Assembly: GCA_003990765.1 (NCBI GenBank)
Contig: RBNJ01000360.1
Location: 1-32,256 of the forward strand
Length of the DNA stretch: 32,256 nucleotides
Reading direction: 5' to 3'
From: Jimgerdemannia flammicorona
Lineage: Eukaryota
Each line of letters begins with the position of its first letter. Within the stretch, counting starts at the first letter, position 1. Positions 4,414 to 24,837 of the stretch are shown one piece after another. Both the position numbers and the translations under genes were made by a program. A model generated the notes under the pieces. That model saw only the letters and a program-made list of their open reading frames with translations, was not told where the DNA came from and did not search any database.

Positions 4414-4518
4414 CGCGTCATCTGAAGCCTCCACCATCCCAACAAAAAAAACCCCCAAGCACACCATACCCATACCCATATACCCATATTCATACCTACT
4501 CCATCCCTTCTCTCAATC

Positions 4519-5787
4519 ATGAAGATCATTTCGTGCATCCAAGCCGCCCTGGTGGTGGCCTCGTTTTCCTCCACCCATGCCACCCCTGTCAGCGACCCCA
4601 AAGGGTCTGGATTCAGCATCCTCGTCCACAGTAATCCACAGTTCGCGCCCAGTGCCAAGAGGCAGGTGGCCAAGACTTGGAATAAGTTTAATAAGCACGC
4701 GACGGGCAGTCGGATTGGGAATGTCGATGTCAGCACGATTCCGCTCATTGATGTATGTATAGTCCAGCGATTGCTATTGATACGAACTAGCCTCTTGCGT
4801 TCCGATCTAACGATCTATAATTTTCAATTACAACAGGACGGCCCCGATACAGAGTACTACGCTTCTATCACAGTGGGGACCCCCGGTAAGACCTTCAAGA
4901 TGGATTTCGACACAGGTTCATCCGACTGCTGGATCCCTGCCATTGACTGCGGCAGCACGTGCAAAGGCAAGGCGTCCTACGACCCGACGAAGAGCAGCAC
5001 GTACAAGAAGGACGGTCGCCCATGGTCGATTCAATTCAACGACGGGTCGATCTCCTCCGGAATCCTAGCCAGCGACACGATCTCCCTGGGCACGCTAGTC
5101 ATCAAAGACCAAACCATCGACCTCGCCAAGAAGCTCTCAGGCACCTTTGGGGGTATTGCGGCCGACGGCATCCTCGGGTTAGGTTTTGACGCCAACACGG
5201 CTGTTCAGGGCATCAAAACCCCCGTGGACAACATGATCGCTCGGGGCCTCATCACCGACCCGGTCTTCGGCGTCTTCCTTGGCAAAGCCAGCCGGGGTGG
5301 CGGCGGCGAGTACGTCTTTGGTGGATACAACAAAAACAAGGTCGGCGGTACACTCACTACCATCCCCGTCGACAACAGCCAAGGGCTTTGGGGCATCACC
5401 ATTGACGGGCTGTCTGCGGGCGGCAAGTCTGTCGGAAAATTCAACGGTATCCTCGACACCGGGACCACGTTGCTTCTCCTCACGAACAAAGTTGCGTCCG
5501 CACTCGCTGCAATCCTCGGTGCCACCGATAACAAAGACGGGACCTACACCGTGCCCTGCGATGCGAATAAGCTCGCCGACCTGGTGTTCTCTATCGGGTC
5601 CGCGAAATTCAAGGTGCCCAAGGAGGATCTTGTGTTCCAGAAGGACAGCAAGGGAGTTTGTATGGCCGGGTTTGGATATGGCAACTTACCGTTCGCAATC
5701 TTGGGAGACATGTTCCTCAAGAACAACTATGTCGTGTTTAATCAGAAGGTACCACAGGTGCAGATGGCGCCGTTGGCAGGGTTGTAA
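4519..5787 (+). CDS. Secreted pepsin-family (A1) aspartic protease, rhizopuspepsin-like; exons 4519-4752 and 4837-5787, 394 aa spliced
   Basis: Hydrophobic signal peptide, basic propeptide, both catalytic motifs (FDTGSSD, LDTGTT), DGILGLGF and ILGDMFL. AATAAA at 5895-5900. Confidence 0.96.
   Translation: MKIISCIQAALVVASFSSTHATPVSDPKGSGFSILVHSNPQFAPSAKRQVAKTWNKFNKHATGSRIGNVDVSTIPLIDVCIVQRLLLIRTSLLRSDLTIYNFQLQQDGPDTEYYASITVGTPGKTFKMDFDTGSSDCWIPAIDCGSTCKGKASYDPTKSSTYKKDGRPWSIQFNDGSISSGILASDTISLGTLVIKDQTIDLAKKLSGTFGGIAADGILGLGFDANTAVQGIKTPVDNMIARGLITDPVFGVFLGKASRGGGGEYVFGGYNKNKVGGTLTTIPVDNSQGLWGITIDGLSAGGKSVGKFNGILDTGTTLLLLTNKVASALAAILGATDNKDGTYTVPCDANKLADLVFSIGSAKFKVPKEDLVFQKDSKGVCMAGFGYGNLPFAILGDMFLKNNYVVFNQKVPQVQMAPLAGL
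4753..4836 (+). other. Phase-0 spliceosomal intron, 84 nt, in frame and stop-free
   Basis: GTATGT donor, CTAAC branch point (4807-4811) and CAACAG acceptor. Removal gives PLID|DGPDTEYY. Confidence 0.88.
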
Positions 5788-7816: not shown

Positions 7817-8292
7817 TATAACATAGTGGACACTTACTCTTGAAAGAATGTCAGATTTCTGTATCTTGAAAACTTGACTGTTCTGACTCTTGCAGAGTCT
7901 CTTGAAGTTGCAGGGGAGGGTGGGTGAGTTCGAAGTATATCTGCCCACAGACTTACTAGTTCCTTTGCTATCTCTTTGCCTTGAACTATTTCAATCTGAG
8001 GTTTATTCACTTGAAGATACTGGGTTATTTATACAAGTTTGCTAGCTATGAGAGGGTGGCTAAGTAATAAATGAGTCATTTGGACTTTGTTGAAATATTT
8101 GGACTATGTCTAAATACTATACTAAATCAGGACATTTGATTTGGATAATGTCTAAAATTTAGACAATGTCTAAGAATTTAGACAATGTTGGAATTGAGGA
8201 CTGCTAACTATAAGGCTATACTACTTTGGGACTAGGTGTGATCAAGTGTCTATTCCCTATTTTCTTCTTCCAAATTTGGCTGTACCATCACA
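7817..8292 (-). repeat. 3' LTR of element 1
   Basis: Ungapped match to 15276-15751 with 27 substitutions by manual count. Confidence 0.96.
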
Positions 8293-8329
8293 ACTTCCTT
8301 CTGAATAGATGGTCTCATCCCTGAGACAT

Positions 8330-8791
8330 CTATTCAAACTCCCAGGCTTCAACCATCTGTATGGTCTTGTACTGTACAATTTGCTGCATGACTGTTTCCC
8401 AATAATGTCTTCTCACTTTCTCAAAGTCGGTAGGGGTTTCTCCTCTCAGGTGGTCTATTGCTGGTTCATCTTCTCAGAATAACTTGTAGATTCTTTTGGC
8501 AATAGTGATCTGTGAGTGGGAGAGTTGACACTCAGCAATCTAGTCCTCTTTGGTCTTTGCTGGATCCTGATTGAGCACCTGTCCAAGCTTGAAGTACTCT
8601 TGGAATTCTGCCTGATATTGATAGGCTCTAAAGTGCGAGATCTGAGAGAGATGAGTTTGCACAATACTCTGAATATCATCATAGTATGCTCCTATGGTTG
8701 GAGGCTCAGTGGTGTGCCATTGTCTTTCAATGGCTCTTTGGGCAGCGCTAGTGATCTTGAGTGCCATCGCAGTACTTTTATTACTAGCCAT
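8330..8791 (-). pseudogene. Element 1 accessory ORF3 (~153 aa, unknown function) between integrase and the 3' LTR
   Basis: The ATG overlaps the pol stop. One frame with two internal stops (TAG 8540, TGA 8474), each one transition from a sense codon. Confidence 0.7.
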
Positions 8792-10000
8792 GATATTTCT
8801 TGAGTCAGTTTCGGTGAATGGTGGTGGGGATTATTGTGTCTGAGGGTTTTCATAGCCAAAAGGTGGTTCCTTTTATATCTTGTACAAGGTAAGATCCTTC
8901 CCACTTGGGCTCTAGTTTTTGTGACCATGAAGCTTCTACCATATTCCAATACACTAGGACTTTGTCTCCTATCTTGATAATCTCCAAGAGTTTGTGGGTC
9001 TTTTCCACATTCCTCCATTATAGTGTCTGTACCTTGGTTATGTAATCCTCAGCCTTCTTCCTGATTTGGTATAGTCTCTGTATTTCCATATCCACATGTT
9101 TCCATATAGAATCTCCATTGGATGATAGGGTTCCCTGAGAACATTCTTCTCTGAACAGCATTTCTCGAGGGGTAAAGTGGGTACTTTGTGATCAGATATC
9201 CCGGAGAGCAGATAATGCTATTGGCAGATAGTGATCCCAGTTCTCATAGTTATCACAGATCTTGGCAATAACATTCTTGAGGGTTTTGTTGGTCCTTTCT
9301 ACTTATCTGTTTCCTTAGGAGTGATAGGCTGTGGTCCAAATGTGCTGGATCTTGTACTTCTTGTAGAGAATCTCAAAGAGCTGGTTCATGAATTCTGTTC
9401 CTCTATCTGTAGTTACTTGTATTGGGGTCTTGAACCAGCAGATGATTTCCTTGTGGAAGAAATCAGTGATTGACTATACATTGGCTTCCTTGAGAGGTCC
9501 TGCTTCTATCCACTTTGTAAAAAGGTCTATAATGATAATGATATATCAGTTACCAGTCAGGGTCAAGGATAGGGGGCCAATTACATCTATTGCTATGTGG
9601 GCAAATGGTACTGGTTCTATGCGTGCTGATCCTGGGACTTGGTTTCATTGGTCTTGTTTCTGTTTCTGGCATTTGTCACAGGTCTTGACAAATTGTCTGA
9701 TATCTTCCTCCATCCCTGGCCACCATATTGTTCTTCTTGCCTTGTCATATATATTCGTTCCTCCTAGATGGCTAAGTTCATATACTGATTTCATTACTTG
9801 CTCCTTCTTGTGTTCTGGTATAACTAGTAGTTTTCCTTTCTTCAGTGTTTCTCCATCAGTTTTGAATTGTTTCCATGTTCTGTTGATAATCGTTTGTATC
9901 CATTCTTCCAGATGTTGGGGTATCTTTTGCTGTCCCAGGTATGTGATGATTCCATAGTAGAGCTCCTTATTCATGATTGATTTATTGGTTGGGGGTAGTT
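8784..10000 (-). pseudogene. pol: Element 1 integrase (HHCC, DDE core, GPY-like module; no chromodomain)
   Basis: SHLGG...WWPGM...CDKCQ; IAIDVIGPL; TTDRGTEF; VERTNKTLK; KLEPKWEGSY. Confidence 0.93.
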
Positions 10001-10059
10001 CGGGGTGTCTGTGAGAGGGCATCTGCATTGGCATTGGTTCTTCCAGAGTGGTGTACAAT

Positions 10060-11322
10060 GGTTACATCATAAGCTTGCAACTTCATTATCTATCTGGCAT
10101 AGATTCCTTTATGTTGTCCAGTTGTCAGTAGCCAGGTGAGAGCTGAGTGGTCTATTTGGATGATGAAGTGTCTCCCAGCCAGATAGTAGTAGAACTTTTC
10201 TACAGCCCAGATGACTGCGAGGCATTCCAACTTGTAGGATTTATATTTTTTTTCAGCTTCTCGAGTTCTGCAGCTAAGGTATGTGATGACATACTCCACT
10301 TTATCTTTCTTTTGAGCTAGGACTGCTCCTAGTCCTTGTGCACTTGCATCAGTCTATAGGATGAATTCTTGAGTCTAGTCAGGTCTTCTGAGGATGGGTG
10401 CCTGGGTCAGTCTGACCTTGAGTTCATCAAATACTTTTTGTTGTCTGCCAGTCCACTGGAACTTGGTATCCTTCTTGTTAAGTTCATAGATTGGACCTGT
10501 GATATTAGAGAATCCTCTAATAAATCTGCGATAGTAGGAGGCAAGTCCCATGAAGGCTTGGGCTTCTGTAACAGTGGTGGGTCTTGGGTATGCTGCCACT
10601 GCTTGTATCTTGAGGGGGTCCATGTGTGTTCCATCTTGGTTGATGATGTGGCCAAGATAAGAGATCTCGATTTCTGTGAATTTGCATTTCTTGGACTTGA
10701 TGTATAGGCCATACTCTCTCAGTCTTTCTATTATCTGCCGGATGTGCTGCAGGTGTTCTTCTGGTGTCTGGCTGTAGATGATTACATCATCAACGTAGAC
10801 CATCATCTATCTTCCTATATTATAGCAGAAGATTTTGTTCATCATTCACTGGAAACTTGCTGGTGCATTGCATATTCCAAATGGCATTCATAGGTAGACA
10901 TAGGTTCTGTCTGGGATGATGAAAGCTGACTTTTCACTTGCCATGTCTGTGAGTCCAATTTGGTGGAATCCTGAGTATAAGTCCAAAGTGCTATAGTACT
11001 GTGCTTCATCTTCCAGTGTTATGAGGATGTCATTGATGAGAGGCAGTGGTTGGCAATCCTTCTTGGTAACCATGTTGAGCTTTCTGTAGTCAATGCAGAG
11101 TCTTGGGGTGAATTCTCCAGACTTGCTGTCTTTTTTTGGGGCTAGTACAACAGGTGAGGACCAGGGGCTGCTGGCTTCTTTAATGATACCAGCTTCTTCT
11201 ATCTGCTTGATTTCTTCTCTGAGTCATTCTTGGTAGGCTGGTGGGACAGGTCTTGCCTTCTGATAAATTGGTTTGGTGTCTCCAGTATCTACTTCATGAT
11301 AGTAGTGTGGGGTCTTTCCTTT
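10060..11322 (-). pseudogene. pol: Element 1 reverse transcriptase and RNase H
   Basis: SPWSSPVV, LCIDYRKLN, LDLYSGFHQI, MPFG, YVDDVIIYS, FMGLASYYRRFI, TDASAQGLGAVL, LECLAVIWAV, DHSAL. Confidence 0.96.
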
Positions 11323-12508
11323 TTTTTTTTTTTTTTTTGTTTTACGGACTCATGTCCCAAGGATTTTTATTGGAAGGGAACCTAGACTATATAGGCCAAA
11401 ACCCTCCCCCACCACCCACCAAGCACTGCCCCTCCATTAACCTAGGCTAGCTATTGTCCAGCAGCTCGACCATGCCAGGCGCAGTAGGGCTGATAAGCCC
11501 GCACCTCATTCTGTGTACCATGCTCTCCCTACCACCAGGGGAAACCCAACCATATGCTAACAACCAAAAGCACATGCCTGAGAACCCAACGTATGTACAA
11601 GGCCACGCCCGAGCTGAATAAAATAGCCCCTGCCACCCCAAAGAGAATGACAGGCAAATAAAAAACTCTCATCAAAGCACAACATGGTGGGTAGGGCCTG
11701 GTTCTCCCAGTTGAGGTGAGTAAAGGACTTACACATAAGGCAGGAGGAAACCCCCAATACCCCACTACTCAAGCCTGTGGGCCTCAATCACATTGCCATG
11801 TCAGCTCCCAGTTCCAGTTGAGTGCAGCCAAGACACCTGAAATGGGTAGCCTTGGGCCTCCTGACCCCCTCTGATGACTGGGGCCCAACCCTGCTGACCA
11901 CCAAAAGAAGCCAATAGTGACACCTACCACCTAACTGCACCACACCAATCAAAAGGCCCCACCAAAGCAGCACCTGCCCCAGCCCCGATGACTGCCCCCA
12001 GCCTGGCACCCTACTGGTTCACCGTAATCGCCCTTCCACCTATCTGTGATGGCCATCTCCCCTCCCATCCCGACAACACCCAAAAAGCTGTCACCTATGC
12101 CAGAACCATGCTCGCCGGGAAGCTTGCCAAAGCCAGAGGGCCCCACCACAGGCACCAAGGACCTGCAGGTAACCTATACTGAGCACTTGACGCCCAAGGT
12201 CGGCCGACTCCCTACATAGCCCGAGACACACCAAGACAACTCCTTGTTAGCGATGGCAAAAGGAAGAAGGCGCCGCACCAAAAAGGGTACACCCTAGACG
12301 CAGCTGAAGGCACCAGAATCCATGAAAAAGTGGAGGAAGCACTAATCCGACACTGATAAAGGGACAACTCATCACCATTGCCCTCCTCCCACCATGCCCC
12401 TGCAGGCACAGCAAACCAACCTGAGGTAGAGGGGGTAATATTAGGGGAAAGGGGACTTGGAAGGTCGCCTACCAAACCTAGTGACCGGTAAGGTAGTGGA
12501 GAAAGGAG
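11323..12508 (-). mobile_element. Poly(A)-tailed non-LTR retro-insertion (5'-truncated LINE 3' end or non-autonomous element)
   Basis: 14-16 bp TSD GTGGGGTCTTTCCT(TT) at 11307-11322 and 12509-12524. T tract to 11338. AATAAA on the minus strand at 11366-11371. Removal restores pol KDIKGKTP|HYYHEVDTG. Confidence 0.92.
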
Positions 12509-12689
12509 GTGGGGTCTTTCCTTTGATATCCTTGAAATCTGTGGCAAGGACATCTTCAAATTCGTGGAGTATTTTCTTGAGTTCTTTCTTAAGTGGAAAT
12601 TCATTTCTGATGGTGTAGCTGTGCTTGCTTGTGTTTTCCTCCTTCTTATACTCGAGTTCGGTAATCTTGGTGCTGGCGAATACTTCTCT

Positions 12690-13102
12690 TCCTGTGGATC
12701 CAAATCCTTTCTTTCCTCTTTTCGTTTCCTCCAGATTCTTGACTTCTATGATCCTTGGTTGTATGATTGGAAAGATCAACATTTGCACCAATCGGTCCTT
12801 CTTCTTGACTGGAAATGGGATTGTAGGATTGTGATTTCTAGCAATGAGTAGGATTTCTCCAATATAGTCTGAATCGATGACTCCTCCTTCAATTGTGATT
12901 TCACTTCTAGCCAGGCTGCTTCTTGTCTTGAGAATCCCGACATGATCCTTTGGGATGGTCATCTCCAGTCTAGTTGTGAGTAGGGTGGTTGTCTGGAGTT
13001 CCAGTACAGTCTCTTCTACTTTAGCAATGTCCATTCCAGCTGCGTTTTCTGACTTGTATTCTGGCAAGACTGCATCAGGGAGGATCTTTCAAATCTTGAC
13101 CT
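12690..13102 (-). pseudogene. dut: Trimeric dUTPase domain within element 1 pol
   Basis: All five motifs are present: AAGMDI, RSSLA, GVIDSDYIGEI, DRLVQM, RGKKGFGSTG. Confidence 0.95.
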
Positions 13103-13399
13103 TGATTTCTTCTTCATCATCACTGTCCTCTAGGAGGGCTGGTGGTTCGTCATCTTTCTCCTTCTCTTCTTCCCTGATCTATTTTTCAAGAGCTTTCTGC
13201 CTTCTTTCCTGATAGATCTTCTTGGTTCCGATGGTGCACTGGTAGCAATCATTGACATGCTCTATACAGTACATCTTGATTCCATGAGGACAGACTCCTT
13301 GTAGGGTATAACCTTCTGTGATCTTCTTACACCATTCTTCTTCACTCATCCATCCAACTTTCTTCTTCTTTGGAGTAGTCACCATATAAGCTTCCTCTT

Positions 13400-13810
13400 G
13401 CTCACTCTCTTCTTCCTCCATATCAGGCAGGACTCCTTTGTTGATATTGATGGAAATTCGTATCTTCTGTCCCTGATAGGTGATCTGCATCTTCTGAGCA
13501 TTGAGATCAATTACTGCCTTGGCTTTGTGAAGCCATTGATTGCTGATGAGGATGTCATTGTTGGTGGCATTGGTTACAATTACATCTACTGGGATTGTTG
13601 CTCCTTCAATCTTGATGGGAATATCTCGGATCTTTCCTAGAGATGTGGCTCTTGTGCCATTGGCTGTGACAAACACCAGCTTAGTTGCTTCTTCCACATC
13701 CCAACCTAGGCAGTCCACTGCCTTCTTGCTGAGGAGACATCCTTCTGCTTCTGTATCAATGATGGCTTCAAAGATTCTATCTTCAATTTGGCATGTTGTA
13801 TAAGCAGAGG
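13400..13810 (-). pseudogene. pol: Element 1 retropepsin protease
   Basis: AIIDTEAE (DTGA after G>A), ANG, and DILISNQWL (ILG.xWL motif). Confidence 0.88.
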
Positions 13811-13919
13811 TTTTGCAATTGTCCTCACATTCTTCTTCTGAGTCCTCTTGGACATTATTGGCCTCAGTTATCTTCCATCCTTGTTTCTTAGTTGTTTCAG
13901 CAAGTCCAAACCTCATTTG

Positions 13920-15220
13920 CTGTCTGAATGTTGGGATTTCTGCAAGCTGACCAAAGGTTGCATTGACCTTTTGTTGACTGAGGTCCTTGAAGATATCATA
14001 CTTGAAGGTCTTGGTCTTGCGAAGCTTCTTTTCTTTTTCTCCTTCACTGGCTGAAGTGGTTCCTTAGATGATATCTTGAACTGCTTGCTCTAGCTCTGTA
14101 TCTTGGTCCATCTCTTTGGCTTGGCTTTCTGTGGCAGTTTCCATCCACTTTTCCACTGAGTTCTTCTTAGGTCTTCCTGGTGATTTCTTGTAGGATTCTT
14201 TGCAAACATCCTTCTTAGTAGTCTGAGCAGGATAGGCCTCCTATACCTCTTCTTCAGATTCACCAATTTCTTCAAAGGTGATTGTATTGACCTGTTCCTT
14301 GTTTTATGAAGCATTGCTTGGTTGAGCCTTATGCTTGGTTTCACTCATGCATTCATAGGAGTAGTGGCCTTCTTCTCCGCAGCTGTACCAGATACCTTTC
14401 TTCTTGTCTGAAGTGATGGCAAACTTCTGAACAGGGCAGCAGTCTCTTCCTCGAATTTCCTTTACCACATCTCCCAGGTGGGCAGTCATTTTAGCAAACC
14501 TTTTGGCGAGTTCCTCCATAGGGTCACTGTTCTTTTGCTGCTCTGTAGCTTTTGGCTGAGGTGTGTTTCGATTGATCATTGTGGTAGGGATCACACTAGT
14601 TGCCTTGGGTGCCTCGATTCTGACTCCTGTGACCCTTTCCATTGTATGGTCTTGTGGATGTCTAGCTATCCAGTATTGCTGAGCATAGGTGACCTTCTGT
14701 GGCAGATCCAGAATCACTGGTGATGAGCAGATGGCCATGGCTATTTCTGGATAGACTCCTTTCATGAAGGTTGCTTCAGCTACTTGATCTCGGATAGCAG
14801 CAGCATAATCTACAAGGATTATCTGATATCAAATTCTGGTATAGAATGTGTTTAGATCTTTGCTCATTCCTTGGCATATTGTATTGAGCTAATTCTTCAG
14901 GGCTTACTTGATCTCATCTGTATAATATGTATTTCGGAGCCAGGTCTTCTGTGCTGTCAGTATAGCATTGGCATCATTTCCTGTATGGGTTGCAACTGTG
15001 AATGCTGTTCTGGCAGGACCTCATAGGCTGAAGGGTATGAGGGCTACTTGCTGTGCTGCTGTCAGGGTCCTTACAGTGGCATGCTGCTTGAAATTGTCAA
15101 TGAAGGTGATGATTGATTCGTCTGAGGTATATCCATGGAATACTGGTGGTCTCATATCTATCTTGTCTGGGTATTGGGGCTCGGTTTGTATGGTTGTTCG
15201 GGTAGTGGTGGTTATTCATT
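13920..15220 (-). pseudogene. gag: Element 1 gag
   Basis: RPPVFHG capsid start, FMKGV, and a decayed zinc knuckle WYSCGEEGHYSYEC. Confidence 0.8.
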
Positions 15221-15263
15221 GTTCAGCTTGAAAGTGAGGGATTCATCTTGAATCACCAGCCAA

Positions 15264-15272
15264 TGGGCACCA
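15264..15272 (-). promoter_or_regulatory. Primer-binding site of element 1
   Basis: TGGTGCCCA lies 3 nt inside the 5' LTR. It may be decayed TGGCGCCCA (tRNA-Lys-like), but the tRNA identity is uncertain. Confidence 0.7.
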
Positions 15273-15275
15273 AGT

Positions 15276-15751
15276 TGTAACATAGTGGATGCTTACTCTT
15301 GAAAGTATGTCAGATTTCTGTATCTTGAAAACTTGACTGTTCTGACTCTTACAGAGTCTCTTGAAGTTGCAGGGGAGGGTGGGTGAGTTCGAAGTATATC
15401 TACCTACAGGCTTACTAGTTCCTTTGTTATCTCTTTGCCTTGAACTATTTCGATCTGAGGTTTATTTACTCGAAGATACTGAGTTATTTATATAAGTTTG
15501 CTAGCTATGAGAGGGTGGCTAAGTAATAAATGAGTCATTTGGACTTTGTCAAAATATTTGGACCATGTCTAAATGCTATACTAAATCAGGACATTTAATT
15601 TGAATAATGTCTAAAATTTAGACAATATCTAAGAATTTCGACAATGTTGGAATTGAGGACTGCTAACTATAAGGCTATACTACTTTGGGACTGGGTGTGA
15701 TCAAGTGTCTATTCCCTATTTCCTTCTTCCAAATTTGGCTGTATTGTCACA
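15276..15751 (-). repeat. 5' LTR of element 1
   Basis: TGTAACA...TGTCACA termini, an internal TATA-like motif, and an adjacent PBS. Confidence 0.96.
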
Positions 15752-16240
15752 ATAGATATTCTACAGAAAAACCTCTAATATAGGATAATTATTATATAAT
15801 AAAAAATTATAGTAAATCTTGTTCAATAGAATAATATTAGATCAGTCATATATTTTTTAATAAGAGAAATCTATACAAAAGATAACATATTATAGCTATA
15901 TAATAGAATTATACTTTCAAATACATTTCTATAGTCTTCTATTAATCTAATAATCTGACGGTCTCTGAGACAGATTATAATTTTAATACTCATTTATACT
16001 TTATATTGCCCAATCTATATTGAGTATAATTAGATAAAGATTTTATATAATATATTATTAAATAGATAATATCTATTTTTAATTCTCAAAATAAATTTAT
16101 TATTATATATATATATTTTCTTTTTACTTATCTTATATATTTTTACTTATTTAATATATAAAATAACTAATAAGAATGATTTAATCTTTTTTAACATTCA
16201 TACTATATATACTTTTCAATATACTTCTAAATAGTTTTTT

Positions 16241-17087: not shown

Positions 17088-17424
17088 TATACATTCTCCT
17101 AAGTCTTAGTAATGACATCTAAGTAACTCCAAAAGTCTAGCTAACTTCTGCCAGAACTGACTCTGATATATAAATCAAAAAGACTTAAGTAAACCCACTT
17201 ATTGAACCTGAATTCCAAGGTGGATTTAGTCTGTGTACAGCAGAGAATAAGTTCCTTATAACTATAGTTAATAAAAAGGATACTAGTACTATAACTACTT
17301 TCAAGTGAGTGCTTTCTCACACTGAAGACTTCTTGGTACACATTGTGTACTAAGTCTCTAAGTAATACCTTGTTTTCCTAATTATTTAAAGGATAAGAGA
17401 GGGATAGAAATAAGAGTTATTATA
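17088..17424 (+). repeat. Element 2 partial 5' LTR (R/U5 side), followed by an 8-nt PBS T[G>A]GTAGCA at 17428-17435
   Basis: Reverse complement of 20396-20752; the spurious ORFs 17141-17341(-) and 20479-20679(+) are near-identical. Confidence 0.9.
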
Positions 17425-18084
17425 ACTTAGTAGCAACAGAATTACCAAGCCAAGAAGGTATCAAGAATATACTTCTGAGAAGTTAAAACAAGACCAATCT
17501 GAACAGGAGTAACCCCCAGAACTAACTGTAGATTCTCTAGAAACCAATCTCCAAACCAGAGTCAGATAAGCTATTGTCATTAAGACTAGATAGTATTAGA
17601 AAACTACTGATCCAGAAATCCACCAGCTAGTAATTGACCAGATATACAGAGATCTATATGAGGTCTTTAGGACTTTCCACTCAGATCTTAGAAATATAGT
17701 TAGCTGCTGTAGATTCTACATACTTCTTCATAACTACCTTGGAATCACTAGGATCTAAGAATCTACTGCTGCAACTATCTAGGAATTTCTAGACTATATC
17801 TTATTCTCTGTAGCAAGAGAAGCAGCTGCTGAGTGAATTGCATCTAATAAATACCACTATACTCCTACCAGGACCTCTCTCTAATATAGACTAGTTGTTT
17901 ACTATACCTCAGTTATAATAAGATATAAGAACAAGTAAGCTGGCCACTCATCCCCTACTGCTGATCAAGAAGCAGGCCCATCTATCTAGCCAGAATCTAA
18001 TATCCCTTTTGAAGGACCTAGTCAATATGAGAATACACTATCTCATCAGAGAAGGGAGTCAGATAAAGACTCTACAGGATACTA

Positions 18085-20374
18085 GTGCTCAAGGATATAT
18101 TGAACCCAGCCATTTCCCATTTAGAGCTCCTATTCTGTTTGTCAAGAAGAAGGATGGCTCTCTGTAAATATATATTGACTATAAAGCTCTCAACAAGATC
18201 ACTATTTAGAACCAGTATGCCTTATTTAGGATTGATGAGTTGTTATACCAGATCTTCAAGGCTAAGACCTTTTCTCTACTAAACTGCAAAATGGTTATTA
18301 CCAGATTCTCATTGATGAGAAGGATATTGAGAAGACAGCTTTCTGAATACAGTTTGGATACTACTAGTTTTGAGTCATGCCTTTTGGTTTGACTAATATA
18401 CCAGTGATATTCTAGTATCTGATGAATGATATCTTTGAACCACTGCTCAAAATTTGTATTCTTGTGTATATTAATAATATACTAATATATAGTAAAACAG
18501 TAGAGCTACACTATATCTATCTCAGGCAGATACTGACCTTTCTGTGAGAATATCAGCTCTATGCCAAGATGAGTAAGTATAAGATCAGATTGAGTAACTA
18601 AGATATATCATCTCTGCTGAAGGTATCAATGTAGATCTCCAAAAGGTATCAGCTCTTAAGGATATTCCTATCCCCACTACCCTCAAGCTACTCTAGTACT
18701 TTCTGGATATTACAGATTACTACCAAAGATTTATCTAAGAATACTTTACTATTACAGCCCCCCTGATCAGCCTGATCTATAAAGGAGTGAAAATCAAAAC
18801 CAAATAGACTCTTGAGTATACTCAGACCATGGACTACCTCAAAAAACTCCTTACTGAGGCTCCAGTGCTAATTACATCTGATTCTACCAGAATATTCACT
18901 TTGATCACAGCTGCCTCTGATATTGCTATTGGGGTAGTACTCAGTCAAAAAGATCATTTAGTGGCCTATCTTTTCCAAAAGCTCAAGCTAGCTGAGATCT
19001 AATATACTATCCATGAGAAGGAACTTCTGACCATTGTCACTGTACTCTAGGAATAGTGCTATTTTCTCTTAGGACAACTATTTATAGCCTATATTGATTA
19101 TCATACTCTATAGTATATTCAAATACAGCTTATGCTAACTCACAAATAAGCCTATTGGATGGAAATTATTACTAACTTTGATATGGTTATCAAGTATATC
19201 TCAGACAAAATCAACTGTATAGCTGATGGTTTCTCTAGATATATAGAAGATGAACTTATCTTCATGGTTGAGATAATTGGAGACCTTACTCAGATAATCA
19301 AGAATGACTACTAATAAGACAGCCCCCTGGTAAAATTCCTTCAATTCTGCTAAGACCCAGAGGTTGAGATCCCAGAATCTATGAGGCAAATGTCCAAAAT
19401 ATTCACTTACCATGATAGACCTATCTATAGAGATTATGACAGAGTGATTGTACCCAATAATAATACTCTGCAGCTCAAGGTCATATAGGAACTCTATGAC
19501 ACTTCTGTAGTAGAACATTTTGACTTTAAAATGACTTACAATCTCCTCTCAAGAGAGTTCTACTGGCCAAAGATGACTAAGGATATCAAAGATTTCGTAA
19601 CTTTATATAAGATGTACCAAAGATTCAAAAGTGATAACTAGCTATCAGCAGGACTTCTGCAACTCCTGCCTATCTCTAGCTATAACTGGGATCAGATTTC
19701 TATAGACTTCATTGTCTAGCTCCCCAAGACCAAGGCAGGATGGGATGCTGTTGTAGTATTTGTAGATTATCTAAGCAAATAAGCCTATTTTGCACCCACT
19801 AAGACCACTGCTACAGTACCAGAGATTGCTGAGATTTTCCTCAACTAAGTATTCAGACTATATGATATATCTAGTATCATTGTATCTGATCAGGATGCCA
19901 AGTTTATAAGCAACTTCTGAAAGGCATTCTTCTCTCTCTATAGAATCAAGCTGAAGCTCTTTACTGTCTACCACTCTCAGAATGATGACCAGATCAAACA
20001 AACCAATAGAACTCTCAAGCAGATGCTCAGCATCTTCTGCTGTTATAAGCAGAATGATTGGGACAAATATCTAGCCCATACTGAGTTTGCCTATAATAAT
20101 AGCTAGCAAACCTCTATAAAGAAGACTTTATTCTTCCTGAACTATGGTCAATATCCAAGGACCCCAAGTACTACTATAAAATCAGCAGTCTCAGTAGCCC
20201 AAGATCTGGCCAAGACTATTTCTGATCTTATTCAAATGATAAGAGATATTCTTATTAAAGCACAGAACTATCAGACCAAGTATGCAAACTTGAAGCAAAG
20301 AGAAACCTCTTACAATATTGGTGATATAGTCATTCTTAGAACAGACTATCACTATCCAAACACTCTGGTATAGT
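18085..20374 (+). pseudogene. pol: Element 2 pol (RT, RNase H, integrase to just before the GPY module); most of gag and PR deleted upstream
   Basis: APILFVKKKDGSL..IDYKALNK; MPFGLTN; YINNILIYS (YIDD after G>A, 18467); HEKELL; FYWPKM; WDQISIDFIV; VSDQDAKF. Many transition stops. Confidence 0.93.
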
Positions 20375-20392
20375 AACTATCCACTGCTACTA
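20375..20392 (+). other. 18-nt copy of a tRNA-iMet-like 3' end abutting the inverted LTR
   Basis: AACTATCCACTGCTACTA versus the human tRNA-iMet 3' end AACCATCCTCTGCTACCA (recalled from memory): 15/18 match, with two mismatches of CpA>TpA type. Confidence 0.7.
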
Positions 20393-20395
20393 AAT

Positions 20396-21163
20396 TGTAA
20401 TAACTCTTATTTCTATTTCTCTCTTATTCTTTAGATAATTAAAGAAATAAGATATTATCTAGAGACTTAGTATACAATGTGTACCAAGAAGTCTTTAGTA
20501 TGAAGAAGTGCTCACTTAAAAGTAGTTATAGTGACAGTACCCTTCTTATCAACTATAGTTGTAAGAAACTTGTTCTTTGCTGTACACAGACTGAATTTGA
20601 ATTAAAATTTATATTCAATAAGTGGAATTACTTAAGTCTTTTTGATTTATATACTAGTCTCAGTTCTGATAGAAGTTAGCTAAGCTTCTGGAGTTTAGTC
20701 AGAAATACTAGAGTCACTTAGATATCATTACTAAGACTCAGAGGAATGTATGTATATAGAGGATGACTTAATTTTTATATTAAGGACTGAACTAAAACTA
20801 TCTTTATTTCAGATAGAAACTGGGGGGTATTTTATATAAGTTGGTTCATAATTTCTAACTAAATATAAGTGACTAATTTGGTAACTATGGTAAGATTTAT
20901 GATCATGACCTTTATTAGATAATTTGTAATTAAGAATACTTTGTAATCAGGATCTCTATTATTAGGCAATGATCAGCTACTGCAGTACTGATTGTTGTAG
21001 AACCAATTATTGGAAATAAGCTAGATATTATTTATTTATATTATTTATATCATTTATTAGATTTGTCATTCATATATTATATATTACTAATAGTGATATA
21101 ATTATTAGATTATATGATTACTTATTATATATTGTATCTTGTCTATTCATTTGTTCATTCTAT
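20396..21163 (-). repeat. Element 2 near-complete 3' LTR (inverted)
   Basis: One end matches 17088-17424 (inverted) and the other matches 24671-24837 (direct). TATATAAAA on the minus strand at ~20830. A purine tract is adjacent at ~21164. Confidence 0.85.
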
Positions 21164-21168
21164 TCTCC

Positions 21169-21471
21169 TTAAAAGTCAATGTTCTTGTTGATTTGAAAAT
21201 TGAGAACTAGGGAAGAAGAGGGTAGGAAATTCTCCTCATCTAACTCAGTATTGTTGCCATCTCTATCAGAGATTGGGAGGGTAGTTGCTGATGGCTTAGT
21301 ATCAAAGATGAAAAAATCAATAAGGTCCACAAATAGTTCTTGAGCACCTAGTATGAGAGTTCTCTATCTAATATAGTTGGGCCATCCAGATAAGGGACTT
21401 GTAGATCATATCTGAGAATATTTATTTAGATAGACAGTCCTTCAAAGAGATGAGAAAGACCTTGAAGCCAT
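21169..21471 (-). pseudogene. Element 2 accessory ORF C (~100 aa)
   Basis: The ATG overlaps the ORF B stop (TAATG). Three internal transition-type stops. Ends at the purine tract. Confidence 0.45.
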
Positions 21472-22043
21472 TAGTCTGAATTATTATTCAGAAGGGGGCT
21501 CCAGTAGGGCTCGCAGTCAGTGGACTTGAGTGTGATCCAGAAGTGGGCTTCTTGAGTGACCTTGATCTTTAGTTCATTAACCTTGGAGAAGAAGAGGTTC
21601 TGGAAGTCCTTCAGTTATATATAGTTGAGATTGGAGATTACAAAAGATATATAGTATATAATTTGATAGACCTTCTTAGTTATTCTATACTCATGCTTGT
21701 TCAAGTTGGTCTAGTCTGAGACCTGGTCCATAGGTAGGCCTTTTATATATTGAAAAGGTTGATGGCCAATTTTATATTCATATCAGATTTCTAGGTAGCT
21801 GGTAGTAAGGTAGGCTCTTTTGATAACTTCATAGTAGTTGAGGACATAATGTCCTAAATCTTAGCTAGTGAGATTAAGAGTCTCAGAGCAGTAGTTTCTT
21901 TCTTGAATAGTAATCTGGATATATCCAAAGAGGTAGTCAACCTGAATTGAAAGGGGCTGACTATGGTGGGCTGTTTGGCAGTAGATAGTAAGTATTCTTT
22001 TCTTATCTTTTCTTTAGTAAGAGAAGAGGGGGATGGAGGTCAT
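21471..22043 (-). pseudogene. Element 2 accessory ORF B (~190 aa), apparent homolog of element 1 ORF3
   Basis: A single frame of 191 codons with five transition-type internal stops. Motif similarity to ORF3 (RAY..E..YKIG; I.KKVYQI; I..L....KDF). Confidence 0.6.
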
Positions 22044-22297
22044 AGTGTATTTCTGACCTGGATATTTATACTTGTTTATCTATCTGGTGTAACTCTATTT
22101 TGATCACCTGACTAGAGAAATATATGACCTATTGCTATAAGCAGGGCATATACTAGTCATATAAGAAAATACTAATTTTAAAGGTATTATCACATTGTAG
22201 TTATAGTTACACAGAGTTGACAAATCTTGGACCTTTTTTCTTGGTATATTTGTAAGAACTGACTATTCTTATCTAGGGTGAGAGCTCTCATTATCAT
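22040..22297 (-). pseudogene. Element 2 accessory ORF A (~85 aa)
   Basis: ATGA overlaps at both ends, in frame with each other. Contains CQLC and a hydrophobic stretch. Many internal stops. Confidence 0.35.
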
Positions 22298-22961
22298 GGC
22301 TGGGGGTTCAAACCTCTCAAAAATAGTATTTCTTATAATCTGAGATAATTTCTAGAAATAATATCTATTATGTGGATAGACTTAAGATTGGTTCTAATAT
22401 TGTTGGCTTTCTTGAGTTCTATATGAAACATCTGTCACTCTCTAATATAGATGATACAGATGGTATGAATAGAGTTATTCAAATGTATTTTGCTATACCT
22501 TGCTAAGTTATTCTTTATCTGAATATCCTCTTGTTGATTAATTATAGTGTTTCTTTTCTTGTAATATTCAGTATTATATATCCCAGATAAATATATGGTA
22601 TCCTTTTCATTTGCTATATACTCTAGATTTTAGAGCTATAGTTTCTTCCTTTGCTAGGGAGTAAGTATTTCCATATAGTCCTAAAGAACTTTATAGACAT
22701 TCTCCAGTACTTCTTCTTTTTTCCAGGTAGCATCATAGGTAGAGTAACCTTTCTACTTGATAAGGAAAAACCACTTGACTGTTTTGGTATATTTGTGGAT
22801 CTTGTGGTCAAGTACTTTCTTGATTTCAAATTCCTCATAATCATTAATCCCAATTAGAAGTAGTGATGGAACTATATGCTTGGAGAATAAGTTCACATAG
22901 TAGTCCACCAGTTGACTGATATGGAATACTGAGTATACTTGAATATTATAGGGAAGTTGTA

Positions 22962-24242
22962 TAGTGACTTCCAAAACCAGTCCAATGTTTTATTATTTTT
23001 TACTTTTTATTATTTTAAAAATAGAAAAAAAAAAATTGAAAAAATATAAAACTAAAGTATATTGTAGTCCTATATTAGAAGTTTCCATAGATCATAATTT
23101 TGTCATATTTGGTATTATTTTTGCTATTGAAAATAATTTTTAAAAAAGTCCACACATTGGATCAGTTTTGGAATAACCTCCTCAAAAAATACTAAATATA
23201 TACTGATTAATACTTTACATAGCCTCCCTTTGTCTTATACATCATGCCAACATACTTTGATATACCATCAATTAAATCCTTATATACTTGGCTGGGAATT
23301 ACATTCCATTCTTCTTCTATATATTTCCAAAGCTCATATATGCCCTTCAGCAGTTTCTTATATAGATTGAGCTGTCTTTTGAGATGTACCCACAGGTGCT
23401 CAATTGGGCTTAGGTCCAGAGACTGTGCTGGCCAGTCTAAAAGTCAAACATAGTTATTCTTGAACTATTTCATCACCATATACAATGTATGCTTTAAGTT
23501 ATTGTCCTATTGAAATATTAGTTATTTTCAATTGATCTTGAAATACTTAATCAATTTCTTTAATTCATTATTAAGAATACTTTAGTAAAGCTTGGCATTT
23601 ATTTTTCCTTTGATCTTGTATATATACCCAGTGCCGCAGTAATTTATATAGCCCTAAACCATAATATAACTACCCCTAAACTTTAAAATTAGTATTACAT
23701 AATTTACTGTCAATAGTTTGCCTTGGTATTTCCATACTCATTGTCAACTGTCAGATCCAAAACAGTTGATTTTGGTCTCATCAAAGAATATAACCTGCTT
23801 CTAATTGTCAACTGTCTACTCTTTATACTTGCATATGAATTCATATCAAGCTTTTATATACCAGCAGAAGAGTAGGAGTTTCTTTTATTTTACAGTAGCC
23901 TTCAAACTGGCTTCCTTCAGGGTACAACATACTGTTTGGGTACTGGCTTTTACTTGGCCATCTTCTTGGAGTAGTTTTGTAATCTTGGGGGCTATATTGG
24001 TATTACCACTAGTTACCTGGCAAATAATCCATGATTTGTCACAATCTGAGAGTATTTTTGGATGACTTTCTTTCAATGACATAATAGAGCAATGCTCCTT
24101 TTTAATATGGATTATAGTTGTCTTGCTAACACCAGTCTGTTTGGCAATTTGACATATCATTATATCTGAGTTTAGCAGAACAATGATATTTTTTTGAGTA
24201 TCCAATGAAATTTTTCTCATTTATTTTTTTAAAAAAAAAAAA

Positions 24243-24278
<36 letters not shown>

Positions 24279-24581
24279 AGCATGTGGAGAGGGGTTAAGA
24301 GAATAATCATGCAAAATTTCTAGCTTATATAGTGATTTTTTGATGGTCTGTAACACAAAAATATATTTATTGAGATAGTCGTTCTAAAACTGGTCCAATG
24401 TGCAGACTTTTTTAAAAATTATTTTCAATAGCAAAAACAATACCAAATATAACAAAATTATTATCTATAGAAACTTCTGATATAGGGCTACAATATACTT
24501 TAGTTTCATATTTTTTCTCTATTTTTAAAATAATAAAAAGTAAAAAATAATGAAACATTGGACCAGTTTTGGAAGTCACTG
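22962..24581 (-). mobile_element. Tc1-family (DD34E) DNA transposon, 1620 bp, ~220-bp TIRs, TA TSD
   Basis: TA|[C>T]AGTGACTTCCAAAAC ... GTTTTGGAAGTCACTG|TA. TIRs at 22962-23185 and 24370-24581. Excision restores integrase YKLQLP. Confidence 0.96.
23207..24220 (-). pseudogene. Tc1 transposase (338 codons, in frame, many transition stops)
   Basis: HTH (QIAKQTGVSKTTI), VIFFDETKIN, FQ*DNNLKH, WPAQSLDLSPIEHLW, KGGYVKY*. Confidence 0.95.
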
Positions 24582-24670
24582 TAGCTTATAGTTAACTTTG
24601 CTGACCTTTTCCACAATCTTGTATAGTCTAATTCTTCTAGTATAGAGTTTCTTAGATGTTTGCTATAGTA

Positions 24671-24837
24671 CTAATTACTGGAGATAAGCTGGATATTATT
24701 TATTCACATTATTTATATCATTTATTATATTTGTTATTTATATATAATATGTTGCCAATAGTGATATTATTGCCAGGTCATATGATCACTTGTTATATAT
24801 CATGTCTTGTCTGTTCATTTGTTCATTATATTACAAT
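24671..24837 (-). repeat. Element 2 LTR U3-end fragment
   Basis: Direct match to ~21003-21163. Ends in ATTACA (TGTAAT on the minus strand). Confidence 0.85.

Follow-up and report, generated by a model that had tools for sequence, protein, structure and literature searches.

Inward-facing long terminal repeats in a decayed Jimgerdemannia flammicorona chromovirus: a probable trace of mis-aimed second strand transfer with a tRNA tail

RESULTS

A chromovirus copy with an internal inversion

The window, a 32,256-nt stretch of J. flammicorona DNA, is contig C360 of a 231-Mb host assembly in 35,354 contigs. It contains a decayed element, the whole of which was accounted for by mapping against full copies of the same family. 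On the plus strand, the element begins with LTR A (17089-17424), which comprises only the 3' 336 nt of an LTR of ∼790 nt; the 5' part is missing, and other copies extend further upstream. The spacer ACT, a decayed 12-nt primer-binding site (PBS) for tRNA-iMet (17428-17439, 9 of 12 positions matching) and the 5' leader (17440-18086) follow. Relative to the full copy L107, ∼2.75 kb comprising gag and the protease region is absent at 18086/18087. The next segment (18087-20383) is decayed pol, with part of the reverse transcriptase (RT), RNase H, and the zinc finger and core of the integrase, interrupted by many stops and frameshifts and ending inside the C-terminal part of the integrase. Pfam recognized RT_RNaseH_2 (6e-18) and Integrase_H2C2 (3e-12), in that order; RT motifs upstream of RNase H were recognized by eye, and a 100-amino-acid RT piece gave no Pfam match.

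From this point the element continues on the minus strand. Junction J1 (20375-20392) is an 18-nt complement of the tRNA-iMet 3' end, matching at 14 of 18 positions, of which 20375-20383 are common to the integrase plus strand. It adjoins a U5-PBS spacer ATT (20393-20395; ACT in other copies) and LTR B (20396-21164), a 3' LTR without its first 3 to 4 nt. Behind LTR B lie a polypurine tract (PPT) remnant (21165-21170), with ∼10 nt missing across the PPT/U3 border, and the 3' region together with the chromodomain end of the integrase (21171-22959; Chromo, PF00385, 1.2e-5, at 22600-22959 minus). A DNA transposon (22962-24581) was inserted later into this inverted half; judged by its TA duplication and ∼230-bp terminal inverted repeats, it is Tc1/mariner-like. 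Integrase sequence (24584-24661, minus) restarts at the site where the plus-strand half ends and runs into junction J2 (24657-24667, minus), where about 11 nt are common to U3 and integrase. The first ∼170 nt of U3 (24668-24835, minus) complete the element, with the true LTR end TGTAAT at 24835. The element is thus inverted internally, its terminal repeats face each other, and it has a second junction at 24657-24667 that went unnoticed at first pass.

By sequence, the element classifies as a decayed fungal chromovirus of the Ty3/gypsy group (Metaviridae). The domain order is RT, RNase H, integrase, with a chromodomain at the integrase C end, and normal copies of the family have TG..CA LTRs, a PBS, a PPT and a 5-bp target duplication. 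The window copy is dead. Both flanks are one host repeat in the right order, from which 919 to 1,015 target nucleotides are missing (versus the 10 of 19 homologues that were measurable). Two intact LTR ends and a target duplication mark an integrase-mediated insertion; the window copy has a single proper LTR end (24835) and no target duplication. The ratio of observed to expected CpG is 0.00 to 0.05 across 16-26 kb of the window. Its repeats are heavily C>T/G>A decayed, so all sequence matches there need to be read with decay in mind.

Elsewhere in the window, an open 453-codon aspartyl protease frame lies at 4426-5787 (plus), with rhizopuspepsin as its best solved relative (1e-120; next family, 6e-49), which points most probably to a fungal host of Mucoromycota type. 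At 1070-2700, 126-bp repeats that encode TPR_12/TPR_10 units form an interrupted array. A separate, less decayed LTR element spans 7819-15752, its direct repeats being 94.5% identical over 475 nt; a copy of this family is inserted beside the LTR of locus L036.

The PBS of the family matches 12 nt of the host tRNA-iMet

An 11-nt pattern search yielded 607 sites of LTR end plus PBS for the window family. The PBS is 12 nt long, and all 12 nt are kept in less decayed copies. In two sets of 29 and 30 copies, the tRNA match normally stopped at 12 nt and was followed by ATTAC, AATTAC or TTTAC. The subfamilies with these three continuations diverge exactly at the end of the 12-nt match, as if that point had been repeatedly rewritten at strand transfer. 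The first-pass annotation had allowed a tRNA match of only ∼8 nt in the 5' PBS; the copy at 17428 owes its lower match to three G>A changes. It had also considered that normal copies might carry an 18-nt PBS, and they carry 12 nt.

Among the first 30 LTR+PBS sites listed, the leader followed the PBS in all 29 that were not J1. One of the 30 sites, L165 (G000:C379), is a tandem copy with 3' region, LTR, PBS and leader arranged around one common LTR. The control copy L107 (G000:C874) has direct LTRs, a GTCAG duplication and a 3' LTR with no PBS behind it; this full copy sits in opposite orientation in the pol of another family member. Likewise, no PBS was found behind any of 11 further 3' LTR ends (20 examined, 9 not reaching the end), and the PPT/U3 border was intact in all 19 other readable 3' LTRs.

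A T-loop pattern search found two identical host tRNA-iMet genes. The host tRNA ends in AACCACCCGCTGCTA, and the complement of its 3' 18 nt including CCA is TGGTAGCAGCGGGTGGTT. The end predicted from the window, AACCATCCACTGCTA, is wrong at two positions, and its pattern had 8 matches in the host genome, none in a tRNA gene. An Rfam search (RF00005) listed 62 tRNA matches, with no iMet in the 30 loci inspected; L081, L091 and other matches from this search lie in AT-rich, mitochondrial-looking clusters among nuclear contigs. A search with the 8-mer alone stayed at chance level (2 found, 1.15 expected).

An 18-nt tRNA-like junction behind a 3' LTR

The 18-mer TAGTAGCAGTGGATAGTT does lie at 20392->20375 on the minus strand, where it follows a 3-nt spacer and the end of LTR B, whose orientation is opposite to that of LTR 17089-17424. 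LTR B is a genuine 3' LTR, as had been proposed: on its own strand, the integrase C terminus, chromodomain, 3' region and PPT lie upstream. The spacers, held at first pass to be identical, differ (ACT at the 5' LTR, ATT at J1). Compared with TGGTAGCAGCGGGTGGTT, the 18-mer matches at 14 of 18 positions, and its four differences are all transitions (G>A at 2, 13 and 15; C>T at 10). The claimed 18-nt match is not full; it does extend to 18 nt if decay is allowed for, past the 8 to 9 nt at which an end of the host tRNA match would have told against the first-pass reading. J1 thus presents an LTR end, spacer and PBS extended by the primer-tRNA complement, over 18 nt versus the 12 nt of the family.

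Part of the 18-mer belongs equally to the integrase. The sequence orthologous to 20375-20383 (AACTATCCA on the plus strand) was collinear with integrase in all 29 other copies examined, most commonly as AACCAGCCA (13 of 29); two of the 29 had T at the sixth base, as in the window. Positions 10-18 of the 18-mer are consequently tRNA/integrase microhomology and not an unambiguous insert. This alters the first-pass idea of an aberrant reverse-transcription product fixed together with its tRNA copy: strong-stop DNA of this family does carry a copy of 18 nt of tRNA-iMet, and such copies can become chromosomally fixed, but the one here was not simply left over at the junction, as integrase sequence occupies positions 10-18 and continues inverted beyond them.

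No base at J1 is diagnostic of the tRNA. Position 13 is A (G in the tRNA, A in the family PBS), and positions 14-18 equal integrase. In this copy single bases prove nothing, and it is the position of the junction that suggests a tRNA tail. In another family with an 18-nt site, A13 occurred in 12 of 52 copies and in 8 of 16 heavily decayed ones; A13 is ordinary decay and no objection to a tRNA origin. A record of an older U64 tRNA was also considered for A13 and is unneeded, since decay explains this base; U64-type tRNAs do exist elsewhere, 9 of 18 metagenome matches being iMet-like genes with T at the corresponding position. Decay-tolerant tRNA matches arose at internal positions at rates of 0.35% for positions 13-18 and 0.04% for 10-18. 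The match at J1 exceeds chance, which argues for the tRNA: the break sits directly after the PBS, where breaks are rare.

The acceptor site at J1 is complementary to the tail through a 9-nt overlap with the integrase plus strand. Counting against a tRNA tail, the family PBS by itself supplies 4 to 5 nt of microhomology, and the target is not unique: six sites in L107, the target among them, contain AACCA and match at 7 or more of 9 positions. The target was absent from the top 10 sites by duplex energy in L107, a ranking which, on decayed single copies, did not single it out.

J2 uses the same integrase site as J1, and the microhomologies of the two junctions overlap. Both halves of the element carry the rare T variant of this site. 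The U3 fragment differs from LTR B by 3 transversions in 158 nt (median of 40 other copies, 5.6%; one closer). LTR A and LTR B differ by 49 transitions and 7 transversions in 336 nt (rank 11 of 59); they are only subfamily-close, no nearer each other than to other subfamily members. A parentage test of the two integrase halves by correlated distances gave a rho of 0.07 (n = 22).

tRNA-extended sites recur in the family

A strict search returned six matches, of which L141 was false, being a mutated normal PBS, so that 5 of the 607 sites have a tRNA-extended PBS; a looser search added a sixth, L310. In L136, L137 and L140, the 18-mer is followed by the leader. In L139, it is joined to a site 400 nt downstream, which in other copies resembles tRNA positions 11-18; the product retains the tRNA bases. 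G13, absent from the family PBS, is kept in three of the four other strict matches, and tRNA-only bases are present in L137, L139, L140, L310 and, from a second family described below, L274. With L136, these loci make up a set of 5' LTRs carrying the full 18-nt tRNA copy, with the leader next in four and a deletion in two. In an LTR tree whose bootstrap was not fully settled and which retained three very long-branched rows (L166, L013 and L026), L137 and L140 fell into separate starred clades amid normal-PBS copies, indicating that the extension arose more than once. The 18-nt tRNA copy is fixed in about 1% of the sites of the window family.

A second family provides an integrated inverted-LTR element

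A general search for the 18-mer gave 133 sites (control, 6), 100 of which were examined. Of these, 53 and 29 belonged to two families, 6 to the window family and 3 to a second family, and 9 were unassigned or chance matches. Within the listed copies of the 53- and 29-copy families, the 18-mer looks like an ordinary PBS. In one 18-nt-site family (e.g., L291 and L256), position 19, facing tRNA A58, alternates between A and T and could be a misincorporation signature; in another, L183, L292 and L306 have an extra 5-nt repeat after the 18-mer.

Locus L194 (C622:14894-23744; L221:895-9745) contains a full LTR, a 12-nt PBS, gag-pol as far as the integrase, an inverted 18-mer and a complete LTR. This C622 element has a U3 start at each of its outer ends, and AGAAG stands on either side of it as a perfect 5-bp target duplication. 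A private start variant is common to both arms, which are separated by 4 transversions in 1,470 nt, versus 4 to 11 in 700 nt to nine other copies; in most of 24 normal copies, the integrase target agrees with the tRNA end at 9 of 10 positions. At L283 (C4690; L313:4469-9605), a perfect 18-mer tRNA-iMet complement joins the LTR to inverted gag-region sequence, with a match of 6 of 7 to the one reference copy. The arms of C4690 are 94% identical, its left end lies at a poly-A run, and sense internal sequence of the same family restarts directly behind the second LTR. L274 has the 18-mer joined to sense integrase with a 4.6-kb deletion. The 12-nt PBS of the second family was read from one copy.

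L194, L283 and L274 came from a search demanding the 18-mer, so their match to it is by construction, and only the target duplication and arm identity of C622 count as independent evidence. These two features show that the inverted structure existed before integration: inverted-LTR products exist as cDNA and can integrate. C622 is a cleaner specimen than the window case, and other parts of the genome hold the best examples. In none of nine junctions in the two short-PBS families was the tRNA followed past position 19.

DISCUSSION

A strand transfer aimed at the wrong site

The observations to be explained are the geometry, the tRNA match, the microhomology, the recurrence, and one integrase-type insertion in another family. 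[quoted passage not shown] In this model, plus-strand strong-stop DNA (U3-R-U5 plus the primer copy) would reach 18 nt of tRNA-iMet, 6 nt past the 12-nt PBS. Within the integrase gene, the element's plus strand, as RNA or DNA, has a stretch resembling the tRNA 3' end; the unpaired tail would pair with it and, on being extended towards the 5' end, join LTR and PBS to inverted pol. The event presumably took place in the virus-like particle, with m1A58 as the putative stop; the 18-nt length fits such a stop.

In yeast, Rit1 modification at nucleotide 64 causes a stop at 12 nt. Counting along the PBS puts position 13 opposite tRNA nucleotide 64, and the host has C there. With no block at C64, the copy would run on to 18 nt and leave 6 bases unpaired. 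A search for Rit1 in the host gave no match, and its positive controls gave none either. The unpaired 6-nt tail could produce insertions by slipping back on the PBS, deletions by pairing downstream on the minus strand, and inversions by pairing on the plus strand, as in the window, L194 and L283.

For the window structure as a whole, we prefer a single event, at about even chances. The tail would have primed on RNA that the growing minus strand had yet to reach, and been extended to the RNA 5' end, leaving LTR A without its U3. The minus strand, having lost its template, may have switched through the 11-nt homology at J2 to the U3 of another strong-stop DNA, and a nick at the PPT primer may have been repaired with a 10-nt loss. 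The product, with one proper LTR end, would then have become part of the chromosome, at a target that lost ∼1 kb and was not duplicated. Such an event would cover the coincidence of J1 and J2, the loss at the PPT/U3 border, the missing U3 of LTR A, the one LTR end and the lack of duplication. Against it stand the fact that LTR A and LTR B are close at subfamily level only, the presence of several similar target sites, and an unreliable TATA word. This TATA-like word lies ∼27 nt upstream of the left end of LTR A and reads TACAAG in 20 of 52 matches (32 T, 20 C); it was dropped as a sign that LTR A begins at a transcription start, and the case for LTR A starting at the RNA 5' end is weak.

Alternative origins

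The main alternative, possible but rather unlikely and within the same best explanation, has the tRNA tail act in two steps. The tail would fold onto U3, with AACCA in common, and be extended back as far as the start of the LTR, so that a full-length element ended in an inverted U3. This would create a ∼15-nt inverted repeat with the integrase site, through which a later reciprocal inversion would generate both J1 and J2. It accommodates the placing of J1 and J2 on one integrase site with overlapping microhomologies and the end of the U3 fragment at the true LTR end, and reversing one inversion gives back a collinear element. It also requires a rare chromosomal inversion through 15 nt and a separate deletion that removed 1 kb of flank together with the U3 of LTR A, and leaves the 10-nt PPT/U3 loss unexplained.

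A purely chromosomal origin of the window structure is unlikely; we would give it a small chance. Microhomology would here have rejoined a broken tandem copy (3' LTR and 12-nt PBS) to an inverted LTR nearby, with only chance behind the match at positions 14-18. Tandem copies such as L165 exist, A13 agrees with the family PBS, nested and deleted elements are heaped up in the region, and a target duplication is absent. Three breaks would be required, one of them exactly at the PBS end. The PBS runs on into the leader at all 29 other sites among the first 30 listed; at the 0.35% chance rate per site, fewer than about 0.07 such matches would be expected among 607. The same type of junction also occurs with a target duplication in C622.

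Two further explanations are very improbable. An inversion circle made by autointegration and captured later in the chromosome would have the right order of integrase C end, 3' LTR and inverted 5' half (PMC7197481), but a joint made by integrase would end at the LTR-terminal CA, where J1 has spacer and PBS; the second joint should be an inverted U3 terminus, and J2 lies 170 nt inside U3 in sense direction; and both joints have 9 to 11 nt of homology. An assembly artefact among repeats, as a fragmented assembly might produce, is equally hard to credit with copies that differ by 10 to 20%, junction overlaps below 15 nt, correctly ordered flanks from a single host repeat, a TA-duplicating transposon inside the inverted half and the same junction type on other contigs. 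A truncated tandem copy (3' LTR, normal PBS, sense leader), the simpler explanation entertained at first pass, is rejected because antisense integrase follows instead.

Implications

The mis-aimed transfer that we favour for J1 would belong to a wider picture, which we advance only tentatively and as a joint proposal. In hosts without a purine at tRNA-iMet position 64, short-PBS chromoviruses may routinely make a 6-nt unpaired tail that acts as a built-in mutagen. This tail might lengthen the PBS to 18 nt, which two families may have fixed, and make deletions; plus-strand priming might give integrase-competent elements with two inward-facing LTRs. If so, gag-pol in these elements would be transcribed from both strands, and the resulting double-stranded RNA could trigger silencing of the family to which they belong, and LTR finders that need direct repeats would overlook them. 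The inverted-LTR element would be an overlooked class of integrated product, with C622 as a clean example bearing a target duplication. The genome sequence by itself appears to record the length of primer copied by reverse transcriptase, 18 nt and not the 12 nt of Ty3, and suggests that a Ty3/gypsy element can hand primer-tRNA sequence to its progeny, contrary to the strict PBS inheritance reported for yeast Ty1/Ty3. PBS length versus the state of tRNA position 64, and inverted-LTR copies as sources of silencing RNA, become testable across genomes.

Comparison with known systems

Retroviral plus-strand synthesis halts after 18 nt of the tRNA at m1A58 (PMC8599865). The 18-nt copies found here, with none of the nine junctions extending past position 19, resemble this strong stop; the retroviral PBS, unlike the one here, pairs with the full 18 nt (PMC8599865), and a putative m1A58 in this fungus would fit the length of the copy. 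Ty3 is described as copying 12 nt into a dead-end product, the PBS coming from the element itself (PMC5371799 and PMC7472051, after Lauermann and Boeke 1997). As in the PPT-recycling model for Ty3/Ty1, a Ty3/gypsy element primed by tRNA-iMet makes a first strong-stop DNA with surplus tRNA sequence, and most copies retain their own PBS (PMC5371799, PMC7472051). Unlike in Ty3, the copy here reaches 18 nt and has been fixed in about one site in a hundred. Rit1 modifies A64 or G64 of initiator tRNA (PMC7694415), whereas the host tRNA-iMet has C64.

A close parallel is HIV-1, where tRNA inserts at deletion junctions of proviruses were reported in 44 sequences and attributed to aberrant (deferred) second-strand transfer (PMC12657518). 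In both systems, tRNA sequence beyond the PBS pairing is copied into plus-strand DNA and fixed in a defective integrated copy, and L139 and L274, with downstream minus-strand transfer and deletion, are the direct equivalent of the HIV-1 case (PMC12657518). The excess in HIV-1 is a read-through past position 58 of 7 to 54 nt with the minus strand as acceptor (PMC12657518); in J. flammicorona, it results from a 12-nt PBS shorter than the 18-nt copy, and in three cases the plus strand served as acceptor, so that the LTRs came to face inward. Neither "inversion" nor "inverted" occurs in the main text of the HIV-1 paper (PMC12657518). Of related sources, PMC12220202 deals with non-primer tRNA, and the inversions listed in PMC9278108 are given without a plus-strand mis-priming mechanism. 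An integrated inverted-LTR element produced through plus-strand mis-priming was not found in the literature searched, though older virology papers could describe such products. The inverted form appears to be an unreported variant of a known reverse-transcription error.

Autointegration inversion circles of Ty1 and Arabidopsis SISYPHUS likewise place an inverted internal segment next to an LTR (PMC7197481). The joints here consist of PBS/tRNA sequence and microhomology, not a processed LTR end, and C622 is linear with a target duplication, unlike those circles (PMC7197481). Ty1 replication intermediates are captured at double-strand breaks (PMC11372161); the window copy, without target duplication and with a target deletion, resembles such captures, which offer a possible route of entry. 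The C622 product, unlike them, entered by an integrase-type reaction.
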